A stretch of DNA of 64,000 nucleotides from a phage (GCA_024672315.1 GCA_024672315.1_4714.1), one strand, 5' to 3'. Positions 4,806-49,740 are shown, counted from the stretch's first letter. Notes: generated from the letters alone by a model not told the origin. Program-made: numbers and translations.

Positions 4806-5987
4806 CTATTTCGTTTTCGCCGTCAACGGCTGCGATACCGTAATCTCGACACGATTCTCATCGGTACGTTTAACGATGATAAGGCTGCGTTCATCACCGA
4901 ATGGTGCTGCTACCTTGGAAGCCTCTTTAAGATTTTCAAGAATCTCACCGAAAGCTTCAAATACCGCAAAACCAGAGCTAACATCAATTCTTACTAAATG
5001 TACACGCACGTTGTTTACGGTAATGGTGTCATCCGTCTTGAACCCGCAACAGGAGGGTAGACAGAACTGACCGTCAGCGCAATTAGCTAGGCATGCCTCG
5101 CCACCGAACATTTCTATTAACGTCACCGGTTTAAATGTTTTCTCTGGAAAAGCACTATTAAGGGTATCGTTTCCATTCACGAACCAGATCGTTACTTTAT
5201 CTTCGGAATACACCAGCCGGTACGGTTGGGTTGCGGACGCTTGCGCTTTATGCTGGTTAAATAACTTTGATTTTGTCGCAATCACAGCACGACCTTCGGC
5301 GTCGAAGTACAGAACTTCATACCCAACACATCCGATAAACACACGACGGTTATTAAGTTCCGGAATTCTGACTAATAATGCTTCACCGTTGTATCCGGTA
5401 GGAACAATACCACGTAGGATGATAGATTCATTGTTCAATACTGAGTTGTCCACGACGATGCTTCGCATTACCGCTGGCGTTACTGTTTTATCTGCGGTAG
5501 GTTCAGGTTGCTCGACAATACGGTCAAAAGGTTCGATGGATACCATGGGAACGAAGTATTCAACTATATACTTGTTTTCAGCACCAACGTCCATGACGAT
5601 GATCTGCAAACGCGTAGCATCCGAATTCAATGCCTGTTTCACACGTTCCGCATTAGGAGTATCACGGTCAATATGAATCAAGGCTTTTATCACACCGTCA
5701 TCTTCCAACCATCCCGTTAAAACGCGACCGACGATATCGTTCACGTCACGAATCGGGAAGAGCACTTCAGCGCCATCGAGCACCGCTTCGATTTTACTGC
5801 TAATGACGGGCACCTTACCGTCGTTAAGATGCGCCAACAGACCGGTTATTGCACCTTCACTAACCGGACGTTTTGTCGTCGTACTGACCAACGGTACGAT
5901 AAAACGATCTTCACTGTATTTCTCTGCACCACAGATAACCGGGACTTGAGGACAATAATCAACCAGGCCCCATTCAACCGTATTCAT
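4806..5987 (-). CDS. hypothetical protein with C-terminal Cys cluster
   Basis: 393-aa ORF, ATG 5987 with AAGGAAA RBS; motif CLANCADGQFCLPSCCGF; co-directional and tightly spaced with tmk and resolvase. Confidence 0.55.
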   Translation of the reverse strand: MNTVEWGLVDYCPQVPVICGAEKYSEDRFIVPLVSTTTKRPVSEGAITGLLAHLNDGKVPVISSKIEAVLDGAEVLFPIRDVNDIVGRVLTGWLEDDGVIKALIHIDRDTPNAERVKQALNSDATRLQIIVMDVGAENKYIVEYFVPMVSIEPFDRIVEQPEPTADKTVTPAVMRSIVVDNSVLNNESIILRGIVPTGYNGEALLVRIPELNNRRVFIGCVGYEVLYFDAEGRAVIATKSKLFNQHKAQASATQPYRLVYSEDKVTIWFVNGNDTLNSAFPEKTFKPVTLIEMFGGEACLANCADGQFCLPSCCGFKTDDTITVNNVRVHLVRIDVSSGFAVFEAFGEILENLKEASKVAAPFGDERSLIIVKRTDENRVEITVSQPLTAKTK

Positions 5988-10035: not shown

Positions 10036-11124
10036 ATGAGCGACCTGGCAACAGACAATCGCACAAAAGGGAGTCAGCTAGCTCCAGACAACAACGTAAG
10101 CGTTTTCCGTATCTATGCCTTGGGTACTGTTGCTGCCGACTTTTCCAATAAAAGTCTGGAAGAAGATCCTAACCAAACGCTGGAGGTCTTTCTTGATGAG
10201 ATGATGTCAGGTGCTGACGGGAAAGTTGAAGCGGCGGGAAGCGTGAAAGAAGTCAGTGCAACAGACGCTCAAGGGAACAGCTATACAGCGAAAGCGGCAA
10301 CAACAACCAGCGTACAGTGTTATTGGTTACCTTTCGGTAGTAACCGGATGACGGCACCTAACTTGAGGAAAGGTCAGCGTGTGGTGGTCTGGCGTACCGC
10401 CGATGAAGAACAACTCTACTGGCAGCCCAAAGGAGGGGATAGCGAGCTGATGACCATGGAATCAGTTATCCTCACCGTCAGCGCACGTCCTAGCGCTAAG
10501 AAGGACCGTAAATCGATTTCAACGGAAGACTGCTATTACCTAATGGTTGATACCTTCCTCAAGAAAGCGGTTATCGGCACCAGCGCGCAGCTTGGTGAAG
10601 TTACCCAAGTCTACATGGAACTTAATCTAGACGAGGGTTACTTACAGGTTGCGGACAGCGTTCATCAAAATCTGCTGTTACTCCATTTCGTTGAACATAT
10701 GCTGCGTTATCAAAACCAGGACGACAGCATCATCGACGTGACAAAAAAGAACATCACATTCCAGTGCGAGGATACGCTCAAAGCAATTGCTAAGAACGAT
10801 ATCCGAATGAAAGCAAAAAACATTTATACCGAATGTGAGAACTTCGAGCGTACCAGCAAAACAGAAAGCGTTACGAGTCAGAATGTTTCTTTGAAGTGTG
10901 ACCGTTACACCGCGCAAGTATCAGGACAGACCACGTTCAAATGTCCTAATACGGTATTCACTGGAGCTGTAAGCTTCACAGGTGAAGACGGGAACACGAT
11001 GACGTTGAATGGGAACTTCATACACATCGCAGGCTCTTGGCGTTCACCAACCGGAACAAACGTATACACCCACGATCACGGTGGTGTAGATCGTGGTAGC
11101 GGTCGTACAGACCCGTTCCAATAA
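10036..11124 (+). CDS. hypothetical protein, possibly baseplate spike-like
   Basis: ATG with AGGAGA RBS; N-terminal YWLPF..GQRVVVW resembles gpV/gp5 OB-fold signature (weak, from memory); Gly/Thr-rich C-terminus. Confidence 0.3.
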   Translation: MSDLATDNRTKGSQLAPDNNVSVFRIYALGTVAADFSNKSLEEDPNQTLEVFLDEMMSGADGKVEAAGSVKEVSATDAQGNSYTAKAATTTSVQCYWLPFGSNRMTAPNLRKGQRVVVWRTADEEQLYWQPKGGDSELMTMESVILTVSARPSAKKDRKSISTEDCYYLMVDTFLKKAVIGTSAQLGEVTQVYMELNLDEGYLQVADSVHQNLLLLHFVEHMLRYQNQDDSIIDVTKKNITFQCEDTLKAIAKNDIRMKAKNIYTECENFERTSKTESVTSQNVSLKCDRYTAQVSGQTTFKCPNTVFTGAVSFTGEDGNTMTLNGNFIHIAGSWRSPTGTNVYTHDHGGVDRGSGRTDPFQ

Positions 11125-11144
11125 AAAAAAGAAATGCAATACAA

Positions 11145-11179
11145 CCTCCTTCCCTAGCCATCAAGGCCGGGGAAGGAGG
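11145..11179. terminator. CCTCC-family hairpin H2 (variant loop) at convergent junction
   Basis: CCTCCTTCCC ... GGGAAGGAGG stem; A8 run 14 nt upstream on plus strand. Confidence 0.55.
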
Positions 11180-11194
11180 ATTATAGTTTATTTA

Positions 11195-11584
11195 TTAACG
11201 CGTTGCATTCTGGATGATTTCTTTTCCAATCTTAACCAAAGCGGGTATCTGTACAGCGGTTGCGCCTCGATGACGAAACGCGGTCGTTAACGCAGTATCG
11301 ATACTCACCGCACGTCCATGAAGACGATCGAAATAGACTTGAGTGATTGCGGTAGCGTAATCCTTTCGCTGTTTCTTGGTTTGGCTCAACAGCGCCGCAC
11401 TATGACTAACGATGAAGTAAGCGATTAAGAAGAACGCCGCTGAACGCGAACCGGGTAGAAAACCTTGTCGCTTAGGGAGCATCTCACAATCGCGAACAGA
11501 ATTATCGTTCGCCAGCTCTTCCATGTCAACGCAGCATAATTTTGCATAGGTGTGGAGATAGTGGGTAAAAGTTGAATTTAACAT
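11195..11584 (-). CDS. hypothetical small membrane protein
   Basis: 129 aa, GAGGAA RBS; hydrophobic AAFFLIAYFIVSHSAALL. Confidence 0.5.
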   Translation of the reverse strand: MLNSTFTHYLHTYAKLCCVDMEELANDNSVRDCEMLPKRQGFLPGSRSAAFFLIAYFIVSHSAALLSQTKKQRKDYATAITQVYFDRLHGRAVSIDTALTTAFRHRGATAVQIPALVKIGKEIIQNATR

Positions 11585-11689
11585 TTTCTTTCCTCGATTG
11601 CCATGAGTTCAATGTATAGCTTAAACGTCACAGAACGACGTATAACGGTTTGTTTTAATTTCTAAGGGGTTTCCCTATCTAAGATTGAA

Positions 11690-12052
11690 TTAAAGCGTTC
11701 TGAAGAGTTCTGTCGCGTTCTCGTCACGTAAACAGGCTTCGTTCAACAACTCCGCCAACAACTTCGATCTAACTTCAACGAATGTCCTGGTACGATGCTC
11801 CCAGTCTAAACGGATGGTGTAGGTATCATCCATGTTTCTGTGGTCCACAACAGATGTTGAACAGCGCGTTTCTTGTTTATTCACAGCACTCCAGACATCA
11901 CGGATAATCGTCATGCCTTTCTTGGTACACGTAAACGTTAAGATACAACGATTATTCGCTGCTTCTTCACAAACGTGAATAAATTCACTTCGTAGCGATG
12001 AGGTCTTGGTCAATCGATCGATAGCGAGCGATAAACCGATACGTTGTTGCAT
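11690..12052 (-). CDS. hypothetical protein
   Basis: 120 aa, AAGGAA RBS. Confidence 0.5.
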   Translation of the reverse strand: MQQRIGLSLAIDRLTKTSSLRSEFIHVCEEAANNRCILTFTCTKKGMTIIRDVWSAVNKQETRCSTSVVDHRNMDDTYTIRLDWEHRTRTFVEVRSKLLAELLNEACLRDENATELFRTL

Positions 12053-12053
12053 A

Positions 12054-12479
12054 TCAAATTCCTTCTTTCAAAATCTCATTAAGACCGTCAGTAATCCAGT
12101 CGAACTTCGTCTTAATCATGGCTGGGTTCAATCCATATACTTCCCACACAAGCTGGGGTTTATGTGTTCCATCGTCCAAACAAAGCACATCGATTGAGAG
12201 TACCATACCACCCGTCAATTTCATGTTCTCGCAACTACGAAGATATGCGGATTCTAGCAATACTTTCCCTAACGCAGTGCAAGCAAATGTTAACCGGGAA
12301 GAGTACAGGTACGATGACGTTTTACAGTAGGTTGCTGATATCGGTTGAATATGTTTGCGGAGTTTGGCGTCTTCACGTAAAAGCAATAACGTGTGATGTA
12401 ACCGCGTATGCTCGGTAACCGATGAGCTATACTCACCGATACACTCTTCGGCGACTGATTTAGGCCATTTAATTTTCAT
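12054..12479 (-). CDS. hypothetical protein (possible paralog of 12495-12938)
   Basis: 141 aa, GAGGAA RBS; N-terminus MKIKWPKSVA resembles MEIKFCKSIA of neighbour. Confidence 0.5.
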   Translation of the reverse strand: MKIKWPKSVAEECIGEYSSSVTEHTRLHHTLLLLREDAKLRKHIQPISATYCKTSSYLYSSRLTFACTALGKVLLESAYLRSCENMKLTGGMVLSIDVLCLDDGTHKPQLVWEVYGLNPAMIKTKFDWITDGLNEILKEGI

Positions 12480-12494
12480 GTTCGATTCCTCGTA

Positions 12495-12938
12495 TTAACG
12501 CTGTGTTCCATTCGATAAGCGGGTGGTATCAAAACGATCCAGTTGGTGTACAATGCTATCAGCAACACGATGCAAATAGTGTATTTTGTCCATTCGTGAA
12601 ATCGCAGAAATCGTCCAGCAAGCCTCTGACGTCCAATAGGTGCCGTCTTCACTAAGGCTAACGTTATAAACTAACTTCGTCATCACATTTCTCGCCTTAT
12701 GCTCAGCAGACCAGAATATGTTTTCTAACACATCCTTCCCCGTTTGTGAAAACACGAACCCAAGCTTCACGTCGAAGTCGGATGCTTCAAGATTAACGCA
12801 GTGAAGATGATTCTCTAACGGCGCAAAAGAGGCTAAACGTTCCAGCGCATGTTGCAGTGTGGGATGATCGAGCTTTTCGAGATCATCCGCAGGTTGTTCA
12901 GGTACAATCGCGATCGATTTACAGAATTTAATTTCCAT
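12495..12938 (-). CDS. hypothetical protein
   Basis: 147 aa, AGAGGA RBS. Confidence 0.5.
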   Translation of the reverse strand: MEIKFCKSIAIVPEQPADDLEKLDHPTLQHALERLASFAPLENHLHCVNLEASDFDVKLGFVFSQTGKDVLENIFWSAEHKARNVMTKLVYNVSLSEDGTYWTSEACWTISAISRMDKIHYLHRVADSIVHQLDRFDTTRLSNGTQR

Positions 12939-13050
12939 GGTAGGTTCCTCTTGATAGTGGTTGATGATAGTAACGGGGACGGCGATGTCCCCTTGGTTTC
13001 TTATTGCCCCGCCCGAACCCGATGAGGTACAGGCGGGTGATGTTGATGCG

Positions 13051-13458
13051 TTATAGCGGCATCAGACGTTCTTTAAGTTGGGTTAACTTATTTGCAACGA
13101 TGTTCTCAACGTCGATCATCTTGTTCATGTTGTCGAGGGTATCCTGCCAGATGAAAATATCCACGGAACCGGTTCCGACTAACGCGTTCTCAGGACGATG
13201 GTCGCGGGTCACGTAGCGTGGTCTCTGCGGGCAGGTTTGTAACTCGATCCAAAGCGCATCTAACGGACCACGGTCCGTGACACCTAAGGCGAAGAATTCA
13301 CCTCGTACGACCAGAACATCATCAGCCGTCCTGACACGGGTTGATCCTTCGTACACCAATTCCATCTTTGCTCGACAGGCTGGGTTCTCGTTCCACGCCT
13401 GGACGGCATCGGCAAGGGCTATTGACGTTGCGGTGGTGTTCGTTTGATCATGTTGCAT
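13051..13458 (-). CDS. hypothetical protein
   Basis: 135 aa, AGGAG RBS. Confidence 0.5.
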   Translation of the reverse strand: MQHDQTNTTATSIALADAVQAWNENPACRAKMELVYEGSTRVRTADDVLVVRGEFFALGVTDRGPLDALWIELQTCPQRPRYVTRDHRPENALVGTGSVDIFIWQDTLDNMNKMIDVENIVANKLTQLKERLMPL

Positions 13459-13535
13459 TCTAAGCTCCTGTAACGCTCTCTAAGCGTCGTTTTAAGTTAA
13501 GGTATAGTTTCCCTTCTTTGGATTCGTTTATTGCG

Positions 13536-13811
13536 TTATACGGCTTTTCTGTGCGCGTAGAACGCCTTCGTTCCGTTGTTGATTGCTTCAACCACATCCC
13601 GGGTTAACACAACGGCGTTATCGCTTCGAGACGACGGTGCGTAATACCCTTCACCGTTCTCGGTAATCAGGCGATAACGGACTAAGCCTATACTCGGTTC
13701 AACACGTAGCACCTTCTCAAGTTTGTATTTGATGATCTTCGTCAGGCTGACTGTGTCTGACGCGTAGATTGCTTTATAAACCTTGTTCTTTGCTGTCGGT
13801 TTCATCAACAT
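13536..13811 (-). CDS. hypothetical protein
   Basis: 91 aa ORF, weak RBS. Confidence 0.4.
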   Translation of the reverse strand: MLMKPTAKNKVYKAIYASDTVSLTKIIKYKLEKVLRVEPSIGLVRYRLITENGEGYYAPSSRSDNAVVLTRDVVEAINNGTKAFYAHRKAV

Positions 13812-13851
13812 GATTTCTGTTGTACTTTCCTTTTCGCTTGTTGGTGTTGGA

Positions 13852-14151
13852 TTAAGGTTTAGGTTCCGTTTTGTGTTGTGCGAGTAGTGTGTTGATCTGC
13901 TCCCGCTGTTCTTTTAAGCATGCGGGAAGTTGGTCTTCCCGTACCGTTCCGATTTCCAACGTGATGTACCAGCGTTGTTCGGAAGCCTGCCATTGAAAAC
14001 TGCTCTGTAACCTCAGGATGTTAGGATCACGTACCTTGCTTGCGCTGTAGCGATCGAACCAATCCAGGTATTCTGCTTTCCCTTCCTCGTCGGCAACGTA
14101 ACGCTGCACGCTGTTCTTCCCTTTGTTTTCGTATCCCGTTGCACGTATCAT
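13852..14151 (-). CDS. hypothetical protein
   Basis: Start moved to ATG 14151 with AAGGAG RBS (track start 14208 lacks RBS and overlaps upstream gene). Confidence 0.45.
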   Translation of the reverse strand: MIRATGYENKGKNSVQRYVADEEGKAEYLDWFDRYSASKVRDPNILRLQSSFQWQASEQRWYITLEIGTVREDQLPACLKEQREQINTLLAQHKTEPKP

Positions 14152-14174
14152 GCGAATGTTTCTCCTTGGTTGTA

Positions 14175-14924
14175 TTAGGGATGGCGCAACATAGTCACAT
14201 CCCAGCATACCAGCTTGCTTTTCTCAAGCATCTTCTGCGCGATATCAACGCTAACTCTAGGATGCATGACAGGTAGCCAACGTTCGTTAAGTACCTTCGC
14301 TTCCAGGCGTTGTTTGCGGGGATTGTAGCGCGCTTCGCTAACCCATGTGTAACCGAAAGGATGGATAACCCGTGGGTAGTAACGTTTAAGCATCACCAGT
14401 CTTTGCTGATAAAGCTTATCGGAACCCTCGCCAACGAATAAGGCAACCCGTTCCAACCGCTTGGTGTAATACGTTCCGGTGGTATGATTGATCCAACCAG
14501 GAAGCGTTCGTACGTCATTTTCAAGTGTTCCTGATACGTTGTGCACTTCACCGCTATACACCGTCCCAACAACCTGATTCGCTGCGTCCACCATCGACCG
14601 TGGCAAAGCATCGGCGGTAGGATACAACCATGCGTCCCCAAGCTGCTCTCCCGACGCAAGTACTCGTAGTCCGCTTGCGCTCATCCGTTGCGGATGCTGA
14701 CTCTTATGCGCACGCAACTGCACCACAGATAAGTCCGCTGGATAGGCGACACAACAACCCCGCTGACGGAACCGTCCAACCTCACCATCCATCCCTTCGA
14801 TCATGCTTCCTTCCGAACCGTTCCACCAACGTTTAACCTTCACGCATTCTGCTTGCACCGCTTCAGGCAACGTTAGATAATCGTGCTCGATAAACACCAC
14901 ATCAAAAATTAATTCATTGTTCAT
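14175..14924 (-). CDS. hypothetical protein
   Basis: 249 aa, AGAGGA RBS; first gene downstream of the promoter-motif pair at 15006-15072. Confidence 0.55.
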   Translation of the reverse strand: MNNELIFDVVFIEHDYLTLPEAVQAECVKVKRWWNGSEGSMIEGMDGEVGRFRQRGCCVAYPADLSVVQLRAHKSQHPQRMSASGLRVLASGEQLGDAWLYPTADALPRSMVDAANQVVGTVYSGEVHNVSGTLENDVRTLPGWINHTTGTYYTKRLERVALFVGEGSDKLYQQRLVMLKRYYPRVIHPFGYTWVSEARYNPRKQRLEAKVLNERWLPVMHPRVSVDIAQKMLEKSKLVCWDVTMLRHP

Positions 14925-15005
14925 GTAAAAAGATCCTCTGTTTCACGTTAACTAAACAACGTGTTGATTTCTATTTGACAGAATACGAACATTGTACGTA
15001 TCTAT

Positions 15006-15028
15006 CACTTAGGTAACGCTTACGCGTC
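15006..15028 (-). promoter_or_regulatory. partial copy of conserved motif
   Basis: CACTTAGGTAACGCTTACGCGTC shares first 11 nt with the motif. Confidence 0.3.
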
Positions 15029-15031
15029 GCG

Positions 15032-15054
15032 TTCATGATGCATGGCATCATGAA
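15032..15054. promoter_or_regulatory. perfect palindrome, operator-like
   Basis: TTCATGATGC-ATG-GCATCATGAA between two promoter-motif copies. Confidence 0.4.
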
Positions 15055-15072
15055 GGTAATATAGTCGTGAAA
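15052..15072 (-). promoter_or_regulatory. conserved motif, candidate promoter for gene 14175-14924
   Basis: GAAGGTAATATAGTCGTGAAA, ~128 nt upstream of ATG 14924; abuts palindrome 15032-15054. Confidence 0.45.
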
Positions 15073-15758
15073 GGATTTGTGTTACAGCAAGGGTTTTGTT
15101 GTTTTTAAGAAGGGATGGATTTAGAAGAGGTGTTGCAAGCAAGGAAGGTAAACGAGGATAGGTATTTTGATTTAAGTAAGTAAGATGTTATCTGTATTCG
15201 TTAAAAGTGTATTGTCTATCTTAAGTTATGTCTTATTGTTTAATCGTTTAATATTTTTATCTAAATAGGTTTAACTCTATCTTGTTTGTATATTTAAATT
15301 AAATCAATAAGCTTATCTTCAAAACAATGGATAACATGTGTTTACTACCTTAACGGTAACACATGTCATCTGTGCATTACACTTCGTTACATGCTAATTA
15401 AATCGGATAACTCAAAAAACATTTGTGATACTCTTCTTCACGTTGTTCATCAGAGTATCCCGTCTATACTCATTGCATTCGTATACGACATAACCGTTAT
15501 ACGCTAACGCTACGCTTATAGCTTGATAACTCTAAGGATAAAAACATAAACTCGCTTCGCTCGTTTAGTTTTTCTTTTTCTTAGAGTTATCCTGTTGCTC
15601 GTCTCTAAAGGACTTCGCTCCTCCCCCGTCCCCCGAAGGGGCCGAGGTCGTGGAAATTTTACTTTCCAAATACATTTACAACATCTGTAAACTTTTACTC
15701 CAGGTACTTAATCTTATCATTAGAAATTATAAAAGAGAAGAATAAACACAAACATAAA

Positions 15759-15791
15759 CCTTCCTCCAACCCAACAGGGAAGGAGGAAGGG
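15759..15791 (-). terminator. CCTCC-family hairpin H3 after gene 15807-16700
   Basis: CCTTCCTCC-AA-CCC-AACA-GGG-AA-GGAGGAAGG; identical to H9. Confidence 0.65.
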
Positions 15792-15806
15792 AGAGATTAA
15801 TTAAAA

Positions 15807-16700
15807 TTAATCAGCGACGTTATAACCGAATACGACTTTACCGTAGGTGTGAGTACCGTCAGCTAATGACAGCACCAGCACGTGGTTGTACGTAGCGTTA
15901 ACGCCCTTGTCGGTAGACTGGGCGGTAGCACCGTTATAGACAAAGGTAGCCGTTTGCAGATTGGTTTTCAGCTCATTGATGATATCATCACTTACACCGG
16001 TCTGCTCTTTGATCAGCGTAGTCAGGTTACCTGCTAAGCCTGCATCGATATTTACTTCGTTGCCGGTAATAGCTTGTAAACCTGCGGTGTAAGTACTGAA
16101 GTCTAACGGATAGGTTAACAGACGTGCTGAGGTCTTGGTACCATCGCCTTCATCAACGTAGGTTAAGTTACCTAGATTGGTAACCTTGATGATGTTAGCC
16201 AGATCCAGCGTGGTGTTATAAACTTTAACTTGAACAGAGCCGTACCACGCCAACGAATCTTCTTTGGCTTCCAGGGTGATCGTCTGGATACCATGCTGGT
16301 CGAAGGTAACCGGCGTAGCTAACGTTTCGGCTTTGATGTCTTTCGTTTTATCCAGGAACTTGTCACCGGAAGGCGTGATCATACCGTAGCGTTGAGCTAC
16401 GAGGTCGACCACATCACCGATGGTGGTGTTAGCAGTAACGTTAACACGTACGGCGATCTTCTGGAACCACTTAGCCAGATCCAGACGATGGTAGGTAACA
16501 TCGCGGTCATTGAAGTAAGGGGTACCATCACCAGGGCTAAGCGTTAAAGTTGCTTCTGGAGCAGAATCACTTTTGGATTTAAGAACGTATTTAAGATCAG
16601 AGTATTGGAATTCGGCACCAGTGTCGGCGTTGAGTTTGTTAATCTCATCAACGATAAGTTGCCAAGGTGTTTTTAAAGTAAGCGAAACTTGAGTTGCCAT
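15807..16700 (-). CDS. abundant virion-type protein, member of ~300-aa paralog family
   Basis: 297 aa; strongly biased enterobacterial codon usage; shares YxR[IL], R[YF]G[ILM] and LAW[YT]GSV blocks with 16842, 27766, 29588 and 30450; hairpin H3 follows 16 nt after stop. Confidence 0.65.
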   Translation of the reverse strand: MATQVSLTLKTPWQLIVDEINKLNADTGAEFQYSDLKYVLKSKSDSAPEATLTLSPGDGTPYFNDRDVTYHRLDLAKWFQKIAVRVNVTANTTIGDVVDLVAQRYGMITPSGDKFLDKTKDIKAETLATPVTFDQHGIQTITLEAKEDSLAWYGSVQVKVYNTTLDLANIIKVTNLGNLTYVDEGDGTKTSARLLTYPLDFSTYTAGLQAITGNEVNIDAGLAGNLTTLIKEQTGVSDDIINELKTNLQTATFVYNGATAQSTDKGVNATYNHVLVLSLADGTHTYGKVVFGYNVAD

Positions 16701-16841
16701 TTTCTACCTCTATGGTTGTTACATCACTCTCAAAAGATGTAAGTGTTTACAGAAATTAATATATTTTATATTAGTGTGAATAATATGGAGAACGACTCCG
16801 AATCTCCTTTTCGACCATCAAAAATCAGAGGACACATTATC

Positions 16842-17384
16842 ATGGCCTTAGACTTTAACAAAGCAGCGAAATCCCTTCTGCTTGATCTTATCAACACCAA
16901 AGCGACCCGCACGCTGACCGAAGAAGAACTGCAGTTCGGTACTCCGCAGGCATCTTCCGAACATCCTAAGAACACCGTTATTCAGCTGGACGCTGCGCCT
17001 GAAGCAGCTAACCTGCAGGGTAGTAAGCAGTTCTACTACGATCGTCTGGCTCTGTCCGACGTTTTCGCTGATGTAACTAGCGATGTTACTTTCGAACTGC
17101 CGCACGGTACCGACAGCATCCAGGCTTCTGAACTGGTAAGCAAGCTGGTCACCAAATTCGGCCTGGCTTCCCTGACCGGTGAAATCAAAGAAGAAACCTT
17201 CCAGCTGTCTGCAGGTACTGTTGCTCAGGTAACTCTGAACGCGATCGAGAATGGCATGGTATATACCGGCACCCTGCAGGTTGCACTGACCTACGCAGCT
17301 GCACCGAAAGATGACCTGGCAACCGTTCTGGCGAATAACGTAGCTGAAGGCTTCGAGAAACCGACCGTTAGCGTTGTTGGCTAA
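16842..17384 (+). CDS. short member of ~300-aa paralog family
   Basis: Start moved to ATG 16842 (AGAGGA RBS, onset of strong codon bias); motifs FYYDRLALSDVF, KFGLASLTGEI, MVYTGTLQV. Confidence 0.6.
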   Translation: MALDFNKAAKSLLLDLINTKATRTLTEEELQFGTPQASSEHPKNTVIQLDAAPEAANLQGSKQFYYDRLALSDVFADVTSDVTFELPHGTDSIQASELVSKLVTKFGLASLTGEIKEETFQLSAGTVAQVTLNAIENGMVYTGTLQVALTYAAAPKDDLATVLANNVAEGFEKPTVSVVG

Positions 17385-43232: not shown

Positions 43233-43256
43233 CACCTAGGTAATGTAAGCGTCAAA
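43233..43256 (-). promoter_or_regulatory. conserved motif, candidate promoter for gene 41646-43082
   Basis: CACCTAGGTAATGTAAGCGTCAAA, ~150 nt upstream of ATG. Confidence 0.45.
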
Positions 43257-49716: not shown

Positions 49717-49740
49717 CACCTAGGTAATGTAGTCGTGAAA
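49717..49740 (-). promoter_or_regulatory. conserved motif, candidate promoter for gene 48943-49512
   Basis: CACCTAGGTAATGTAGTCGTGAAA, ~205 nt upstream of ATG. Confidence 0.45.

Follow-up and report, generated by a model that had tools for sequence, protein, structure and literature searches.

Eight genes behind an early-type promoter

We analyzed a 64,000-nucleotide (nt) stretch of phage DNA (GCA_024672315.1; hereafter the window), in which a block of eight small open reading frames (ORFs) on the minus strand, at positions 11195-14924, had been singled out from the sequence alone in an earlier note as candidate host-takeover or anti-defense genes. All eight ORFs are present at these coordinates. 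The region from 11000 to 15200 is 94.7% identical to the DNA of Escherichia phage vB_EcoM_Goslar (Goslar) over 87% of its length, and no other phage matched it among the 50,697 phage genomes searched. Goslar belongs to the Chimalliviridae, a family of nucleus-forming jumbo phages, and, by sequence, the window phage is a Goslar-like nucleus-forming jumbo phage (chimallivirus) of the same family, not Goslar itself. The window coordinates run ~41 nt behind those of Goslar, and the eight ORFs are collinear with Goslar gp021 to gp014 (HOV27_gp014 to gp021), flanked by gp013 on the plus strand, annotated as a baseplate assembly protein, and by gp022, a DUF7941 virion protein. The nearest relative among those found is the IMG/VR contig UViG_3300011560, and the window phage had no match in complete E. 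coli genomes or PLSDB plasmids. According to a preprint on Goslar-like phages, the group is very uniform and 59 of its 60 known genomes derive from bacterial assemblies, as persistent infections, not from phage isolates.

We numbered the genes o1 to o8 in the order in which they would be read on the minus strand. The first gene, o1 (14175-14924; 249 amino acids (aa)), is an ortholog or allele of Goslar gp021 and the most divergent of the eight; it is followed by o2 (13852-14151; 99 aa; ortholog of gp020), which occurs in all relatives, by o3 (13536-13811; 91 aa; gp019), a basic protein with an isoelectric point of 9.8 that is missing from relative L012, and by the acidic o4 (13051-13458; 135 aa; gp018). 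Next come o5 (12495-12938; 147 aa; gp017), o6 (12054-12479; 141 aa; gp016) and o7 (11690-12052; 120 aa; gp015), and the block closes with o8 (11195-11584; 129 aa; gp014), a basic protein and the conserved last gene. A single hydrophobic segment in o8 (residues 49-67, followed by KKQRK; maximum Kyte-Doolittle value of 1.85 in a 19-residue window) makes a single-pass membrane helix or anchor possible.

The eight ORFs are real genes, as judged from their Shine-Dalgarno sites, their substitution patterns and the peptides of three orthologs. A GGAG/GAGGA-type site lies upstream of every ATG, at a spacing of 5-10 nt in seven genes and at ~14 nt, with a weaker match, in o3. For o2, the mechanically called ORF reaches 14208, yet the Shine-Dalgarno site is found only before the ATG at 14151, in agreement with the Goslar annotation. 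Pairwise Nei-Gojobori comparisons with four relatives gave ratios of non-synonymous to synonymous substitution (dN/dS) of 0.07-0.44 for all eight genes (0.20-0.44 for o1 and 0.21-0.26 for o3), even where synonymous sites are nearly saturated, and the reading frames are intact in 12 genomes. Peptides of the Goslar orthologs of o4, o5 and o6 (gp018, gp017 and gp016) have been detected by mass spectrometry, and the peptides shown for gp017 and gp018 match the window proteins exactly.

At the head of the block lies a 19-nt motif, TTTCACGACTATATTACCT (15054-15072, minus strand), of the early, virion-RNA-polymerase type. Its core, TATATTAC, is present twice in the window, and variants with one mismatch exposed a longer shared context; the resulting pattern, TTTSACGNYTAYATTACYT, has exactly four matches in the 64 kb, against 0.03 expected, all of them on the minus strand (2518-2536, 15054-15072, 43238-43256 and 49722-49740). 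The four copies precede minus-strand runs that correspond to Goslar gp004-gp001, gp021-gp014, gp040-gp037 and gp047-gp044, respectively. An extended form, TTTSACGNY-TAYATTAC-YT, was derived solely from the window and its relatives. The copy at the block head is kept in all eight relatives compared, and the DNA directly upstream of it varies. A scan for sigma-70 promoters found sites no more commonly than in shuffled sequence. The octamer TATATTAC is probably identical to the early core of PhiKZ. According to reviews and a differential RNA sequencing study, the early promoters of jumbo phages are conserved, AT-rich and ~10 nt long, centered near position -10 and with a T-rich stretch upstream; they precede early operons, and their use is ascribed to the virion RNA polymerase. 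The motif at 15054-15072 would accordingly act as the conserved early-type promoter of the block, its start site and polymerase being deduced from the motif.

Between the promoter motif and o1 lies a 5' leader of ~130 nt (14925-15053, minus strand) that is predicted to be structured, with a folding energy of -39.1 kcal/mol and a z-score of -4.08 against shuffled sequences. The 3' 80 nt of the leader are nearly invariant in eight relatives, and a conserved hairpin (14944-14963) stands directly before the Shine-Dalgarno site. The upstream part carries a 43-nt insert (~15008-15050, minus strand) that is found in the window, L005 and L010 and is absent from Goslar, L003, L007, L008 and L012. This insert holds a perfect 10-bp palindrome (15032-15054; arms 15032-15041 and 15045-15054), the outer arm of which ends at 15054, one base past the leader. 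Because the insert occurs in only three of eight relatives, the palindrome is not a conserved operator; the promoter/operator cluster that had been proposed at 15006-15072 thus stands as to its promoter and falls as to a conserved operator. A second small GC palindrome is also present in the insert, ~14-nt direct repeats (TTACCTTCATGATG) flank it in L005, and the insert occurs irrespective of o1 allele type; a small duplication or a miniature insertion could account for it.

At the other end of the block, between the convergent gp013 (plus strand) and o8 (minus strand), a hairpin with a 10-bp stem (CCTCCTTCCC, 15 nt, GGGAAGGAGG) occupies 11145-11179. It matches its own reverse complement in L003 and is annotated as a putative terminator in Goslar, and it is probably a bidirectional terminator that ends the operon.

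The expression of the Goslar orthologs fits a single co-regulated early unit, as read from knockdown ratios. Knockdown of ChmA is reported to halt infection at the vesicle stage, with an early-type transcriptome (preprint 10.1101/2023.09.20.558163). In Supplementary Table 2 of that preprint, gp014-gp021 show log2 fold changes of +0.8 to +1.4 under the knockdown, and gp005-gp013 and gp022-gp036 fall by log2 3 to 7; among gp001-gp050, only four runs keep their expression, each of them preceded by the motif. Reads per nt are even over the eight Goslar genes, at 0.8-1.6 in the control and 0.6-1.5 in the knockdown, while the flanks drop from ~0.5 to 0.00-0.01, and the expression class shifts sharply across the hairpin at 11145-11179 in the Goslar RNA sequencing data. 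The earlier note's proposal of an early block is thereby borne out, both by the early-promoter-type motif at the head and by the expression that the Goslar orthologs retain under ChmA knockdown. Late expression, which that note had set against its own proposal, was not found for the Goslar orthologs; by these data the block belongs to an early, nucleus-independent class, which excludes late virion genes, and gp017, gp018 and gp016 occur at low level in a virion preparation (see below).

Several further observations concern the same regulatory elements. CT-rich hairpins of one style follow both gp013/o8 (11145-11179) and gp022 (15759-15790; CCTTCCTCCAACCC...GGGAAGGAGGAAGG) and look like a recurrent terminator type of this genome. 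The interval separating gp022 from the promoter (15073-15806), ~730 nt long, AT-rich and non-coding, carries indels between relatives and inverted repeats with 20-nt arms at 15525-15591 and 13-nt arms at 15330-15370; no Rfam family matched in 10900-16000. The motif copy at 49722-49740 lies inside the 62-aa coding sequence annotated as Goslar gp047, for which reads are far scarcer than for gp046; for these two reasons, gp047 may be mis-annotated or only partly transcribed. The gp040-gp037 run behind the copy at 43238-43256 includes a gene annotated as a polymerase.

A hypervariable cassette island

The block is a cassette-type hypervariable island at a fixed position, and by far the most variable stretch of an otherwise near-identical genome. 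Among 47 genes compared with Goslar, o1 has the lowest identity (42.5-43.8% to gp021), most others reach 97-100%, and the next lowest are gp015 (o7; 85.8%) and gp009 (87.8%). Against relative L003 (IMG/VR contig UViG_3300045988_173921), the identities within the block are 41.7% for o1, 91% for o2, 76% for o3, 39% for o4, 54% for o5, 48% for o6, 74% for o7 and 100% for o8, compared with 90-100% for the genes on either side. The other three early blocks of the window (gp001-004, gp037-040 and gp044-047) are 90-100% identical to Goslar, and therefore the variability is specific to o1-o8.

Synonymous divergence (dS) within the block ranges from 0.5 to more than 2, compared with 0.13-0.38 in gp013, and is 5-20 times that of the flanks; dN/dS stays below 0.45. 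This combination of high dS and low dN/dS indicates that the divergent versions are old alleles moved by recombination and not the products of local decay or of a burst of positive selection. Recombination breakpoints lie inside o1, where DNA homology to Goslar is lost between ~14381 and 14836, and the o1 allele P0008 is a mosaic that joins the N-terminal and central part of one type to the C-terminus of the other.

Gene content varies as well. Designating the protein families by letters (A, gp021; B, gp020; F, gp019; G, gp018; I, an extra 145-aa protein; H, gp017; C, gp016; D, gp015; E, gp014), we distinguished, in 12 genomes, six arrangements of the 7-11 genes that lie between the promoter motif and gp013: A-B-F-G-H-C-D-E, which the window and Goslar share, A-B-A-A-F-I-G-H-C-D-E, A-B-A-A-F-I-G-C-D-E, A-B-A-F-C-D-E, A-B-A-F-G-H-C-D-E and A-B-I-G-H-C-D-E. 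The family of o1 is thus present in one to three copies per genome. All copies have a short N-terminal motif and a C-terminal module of ~110 residues (invariant W, HPxG, W(L/V)P and WD), and they differ from one another in the central region. The additional copies, one or two paralogs of 277-297 aa, are located between the gp020 and gp019 homologs; they and/or the 145-aa gene, which has no counterpart in the window, are carried by L003 (14127-15991) and, at equivalent positions, by L007, L008, L010 and L018-L020.

The remaining genes differ in how freely they change. Other relatives have, in place of o4, an allele of 133 aa, an allele of 156 aa together with the added 145-aa gene, or no such gene at all; compared with the 156-aa alleles, o4 is 38-41% identical, with dS > 1.5 and dN/dS of 0.22-0.40. 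The o6 alleles of L003, L008 and L012 are 48-56% identical to that of the window, again with dS > 1.5. More conserved are o7 (70-88% identical in relatives), o2 (84-99%) and o8, which is unchanged (100% identity) in Goslar, L003, L005 and L012 and retains 89-95% identity in L008 and L010. A dependence of the o1 allele type on the host genus was considered and rejected, both types being found in Salmonella and in E. coli assemblies.

Divergence above that of the backbone was also seen at two other places in the window. The neighboring DUF7941 virion genes at 15807-16700 and 16743-17384 (gp022 and gp023 homologs) are 88-90% identical; the gp023 homolog is only 51% identical in L005, and the gene at its position encodes 370 aa in L010 compared with ~180. 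Both gp022 and gp023 are proposed to be host-recognition fiber proteins in the Goslar structure preprint. The Goslar gp009 homolog (4806-5987, minus strand), a hypothetical protein of 393 aa in the late class, shows 88-93% identity among relatives, against a backbone of 97-100%.

Lineage-restricted protein families

The earlier note had pointed out that the products of 12054-12479 (o6) and 12495-12938 (o5) are alike at their N-termini; the similarity is real and in fact extends over the full length. The two proteins are 26.6% identical over 109 aa by blastp, their family alignments match in hhalign with 92.7% probability (E = 4e-7, 131 columns), and an alignment of 16 o5/o6 homologs contains 13 invariant columns from M1 to W108. 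The o7 protein matches o5 and o6 with blastp E values of 0.003-0.012 and with an hhalign probability of 40% (E = 3e-4), which suggests that it is probably a third, more distant member of this family. When run against the 437 six-frame ORFs of the window, the hidden Markov models (HMMs) of the o5, o6 and o7 families were each other's best non-self matches and matched nothing else. As the three genes are consecutive, they form a tandem paralog array, with o5 as its first gene. No further paralogs of any block family were found elsewhere in the window, and a paralogous relationship between the gp018 family and the extra 145-aa family was rejected at an hhalign probability of 1%.

In keeping with the earlier note, which had seen no recognizable motifs, searches of Pfam, PHROGs and PADLOC gave no match at E < 0.05 for any of the eight proteins and none at any threshold for o2, and the PADLOC defense-protein HMMs match none of them even at E <= 1. 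A tblastn search of the 50,697 phage genomes, with the proteins concatenated and singly, recovered Goslar alone at E <= 5. An exhaustive search of 1.84 billion representative proteins with the o1-family HMM gave six matches, all Goslar-like (the two allele types and four longer paralogs). At 90% identity the o1 family comprises 15 clusters, 37-95% identical to o1 and all on Goslar-like contigs (Salmonella, E. coli and metagenomes), and the o5/o6 family likewise comprises 15 clusters, all Goslar-like; where isolates are named, they are Salmonella and E. coli for o1 homologs and E. coli and Shigella for o5/o6-family homologs. As judged by these searches, the eight proteins are lineage-restricted ORFans confined to Goslar-like phages.

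Profile searches of the PDB with the o1 and o5/o6 families returned nothing meaningful. The AlphaFold2 (AF2) model of o1 is poor, with a predicted local distance difference test (pLDDT) score of 47, and too weak for a fold search. The model of o5 is good (pLDDT 82.6; predicted template modeling score, pTM, 0.79) and predicts a two-layer alpha/beta sandwich whose elements run beta, alpha, alpha, beta-beta, alpha, beta-beta, alpha. Foldseek found nothing in the PDB for this model at E < 0.03. In a viral structure library its ten best matches (E = 2e-5 to 8e-4) are mostly uncharacterized jumbo-phage proteins of 130-165 aa, from phages that include PhiPA3, 201phi2-1, PA7, RaK2 and the Erwinia phages Simmy50, Kwan and Stratton. 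One of them, PhiPA3 gp356 (noted as similar to PhiKZ gp290), is like o5 also encoded within a long run of small hypothetical genes; however, the TM-scores of these proteins against the o5 model are merely 0.35-0.52, and kinship between o5 and PhiPA3 gp356 was rejected by a profile-sequence comparison, which gave a probability of 0.3% and no relationship. We drew no functional conclusion from these generic matches to the predicted fold. Two other candidates were rejected: a YbjN or type III secretion chaperone-like fold for o5/o6, which the predicted topology had suggested, had no significant structural match, and homing endonucleases or other mobile genes (HNH, GIY-YIG, LAGLIDADG, transposase) as the source of the mosaicism had no Pfam match, a LAGLIDADG maturase in the o5 Foldseek results reaching E = 0.11 and a TM-score of 0.25.

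Characterized anti-defense inhibitors gave no sequence match in Pfam, PHROGs or PDB profiles, and at the level of fold the comparison covered o5. The structure-based search proposed earlier was carried through with the o5 model, where it yielded generic fold matches only, and by sequence it brought out no known anti-defense family.

Possible roles of the block

With moderate confidence, we favor a reading of the block as a polycistronic early operon in a Goslar-like jumbo phage and an accessory cassette island, which most likely encodes early host-interaction effectors. In this reading, the injected virion RNA polymerase would start at the motif at 15054-15072 before the genome has left the early-infection vesicle, read from o1 to o8 and stop at the hairpin at 11145-11179, and the mRNA would be translated in the host cytoplasm into eight small lineage-specific proteins. 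The genes o2, o7 and o8 would be the conserved framework of the island. The o1 family would be modular, with a conserved C-terminal module and a short conserved N-terminus around a central region that alleles exchange. The o4 family and the tandem o5/o6 pair would be swapped, duplicated or lost by recombination of old alleles under purifying selection. The variable members would probably bind or evade variable host factors, for example cytoplasmic defense proteins that do not target DNA. We infer the identity of the polymerase, the polycistronic reading, the cytoplasmic action and the counter-defense activity. Early host-interaction effectors are favored because a conserved framework combined with swapped, duplicated and lost cassettes typifies loci that meet variable host factors, and defenses that do not act on DNA are the plausible targets because this phage family already shields its DNA in compartments. 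Counter-defense or the evasion of recognition is thus the most likely role of the variable members. As to the earlier proposal of host-takeover or anti-defense candidates, early expression, ORFan status and the hypervariable island speak for it, whereas no known anti-defense family was matched; because of this, and because the o5 model has no informative solved relative, anti-defense activity is plausible and still inferred.

Several points weigh against our favored reading. The expression data were obtained with Goslar instead of the window phage, and they are knockdown ratios for ChmA, not a mapped transcript; likewise, the transcription start site and the polymerase are taken from the motif. 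No sequence or fold match to a known anti-defense or host-takeover protein was found, and a confident structure model was obtained for one of the eight proteins, the o1 model being unusable. The o1 allele type is independent of host genus, the conservation of o8, o2 and o7 fits a housekeeping early role better than an arms race, and Goslar gp017 was detected in a virion preparation.

A bolder joint reading, which we offer tentatively and regard as doubtful, is that the island is a counter-defense toolkit of E. coli and Salmonella chimalliviruses, with cassettes matched to the defenses of whichever strain the phage persists in. The o1 family would then be a new modular effector class of one to three copies, in which a recognition region at the center can be exchanged and the C-terminal scaffold is conserved, the predicted alpha/beta-sandwich paralogs o5, o6 and o7 would form a second new family, and each cassette would neutralize or evade a different cytoplasmic, non-DNA-targeting defense at the early vesicle stage.

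Alternatively, the genes could encode core host-takeover or early-regulatory factors without an anti-defense role, for instance factors that redirect host translation or metabolism or that aid the transition from the early vesicle to the phage nucleus, and their variability could reflect weak constraint and recombination. Early expression, the complete conservation of o8, the occurrence of o2 and o7 in every relative, the lack of any anti-defense homology found and dN/dS values below 1 throughout agree with this alternative. We nevertheless consider it unlikely, since core functions are not normally duplicated, lost or replaced by 38-55%-identical alleles in genomes that are 97-100% identical, and since the 90-100% conservation of the other early blocks means that early expression alone leaves the variability unexplained.

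Quite unlikely, in our estimate, is a role in persistence (a carrier state) or in phage competition, such as superinfection exclusion or slowed host killing, in place of counter-defense. Exclusion genes are typically early, small, variable and lineage-restricted, which counts in favor of such a role, as does the derivation of 59 of the 60 known Goslar-like genomes from bacterial assemblies reported in the preprint, together with the Salmonella and E. coli isolates that carry o1 homologs and the E. coli and Shigella isolates that carry o5/o6-family homologs. On the other hand, the PADLOC defense-protein models give no match, and Goslar, a plaque-forming isolate, has the same eight-gene architecture as the window.

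It is very improbable that some products, notably those of o5 (gp017) and o4 (gp018), are packaged in the virion and injected with the DNA. Mass spectrometry of Goslar virions with label-free quantification (LFQ) gave estimates of ~12-29 copies for gp017, ~2.5-6 for gp018 and fewer than one for gp016, so that packaging of gp017 is weakly suggested; however, the same preparation contained ~50-120 copies of the non-structural ChmC, nvRNAP subunits and E. coli proteins. In addition, gp014, gp015, gp019, gp020 and gp021 were not found in the part of the virion mass spectrometry table examined, none of the block products is modeled in the Goslar virion structure, and the block is of the early nucleus-independent class, while the flanking virion genes all drop more than 8-fold under ChmA knockdown. 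Finally, non-functional filler or annotation artifacts, with which the lack of database homologs beyond the lineage would agree, are contradicted by dN/dS values of 0.07-0.44 even at dS > 1, reading frames kept in 12 genomes, Shine-Dalgarno sites throughout, and mass spectrometry peptides and RNA sequencing coverage for the Goslar orthologs, and can practically be discounted.

Comparison with known systems

Returning to the block as an early operon and accessory cassette island, we see in the eight genes promising, if still unproven, candidates for proteins directed at the host or at host defenses. Nucleus-forming jumbo phages evade DNA-targeting immunity by means of their compartments. For Goslar, the E. 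coli model of this phage family, the search for factors against cytoplasmic or early-vesicle defenses is narrowed to one 3.9-kb early operon with the population signature of an arms-race locus, whose promoter, terminator, nine protein families and natural allele series are now defined. Because Goslar-like phages are mostly found in bacterial assemblies, the island variants come paired with host genomes, which makes an association test with host defense content possible. Even if unrelated to defense, the island is the main variable region of a very uniform phage group.

The closest known counterpart is Goslar gp014-gp021, which shares the locus, gene order, strand and both flanks with the window block, and seven of the eight proteins are 86-100% identical. 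In contrast, the first gene of Goslar is another allele (42.5-43.8% identity; 260 aa compared with 249 aa in the window), and Goslar is without the 43-nt insert that the 5' leader of the window carries. All eight orthologs are annotated in Goslar as hypothetical only, and we found no published discussion of the gp014-gp021 block; the genes themselves were therefore already known, and the present analysis contributes their operon structure, their grouping into protein families and the recognition of the block as a hypervariable island. The block also resembles the early operons of PhiKZ-like phages, in which an AT-rich motif precedes runs of small ORFan genes expressed immediately after injection, although none of the proteins of those phages shares sequence with any of the eight block proteins.

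Hypervariable islands are known from virulent phages as the plasticity regions of T-even phages and as clusters of anti-CRISPR and anti-defense genes. Unlike the anti-defense islands, the block has no member with a demonstrated or homology-inferred anti-defense activity, and we found no marker gene, for instance an Aca-type regulator, linked to it. In its organization, on the other hand, it resembles the accessory and anti-defense islands of virulent phages closely, with a fixed site, small early ORFans, changing gene content, tandem paralogs and recombined alleles.

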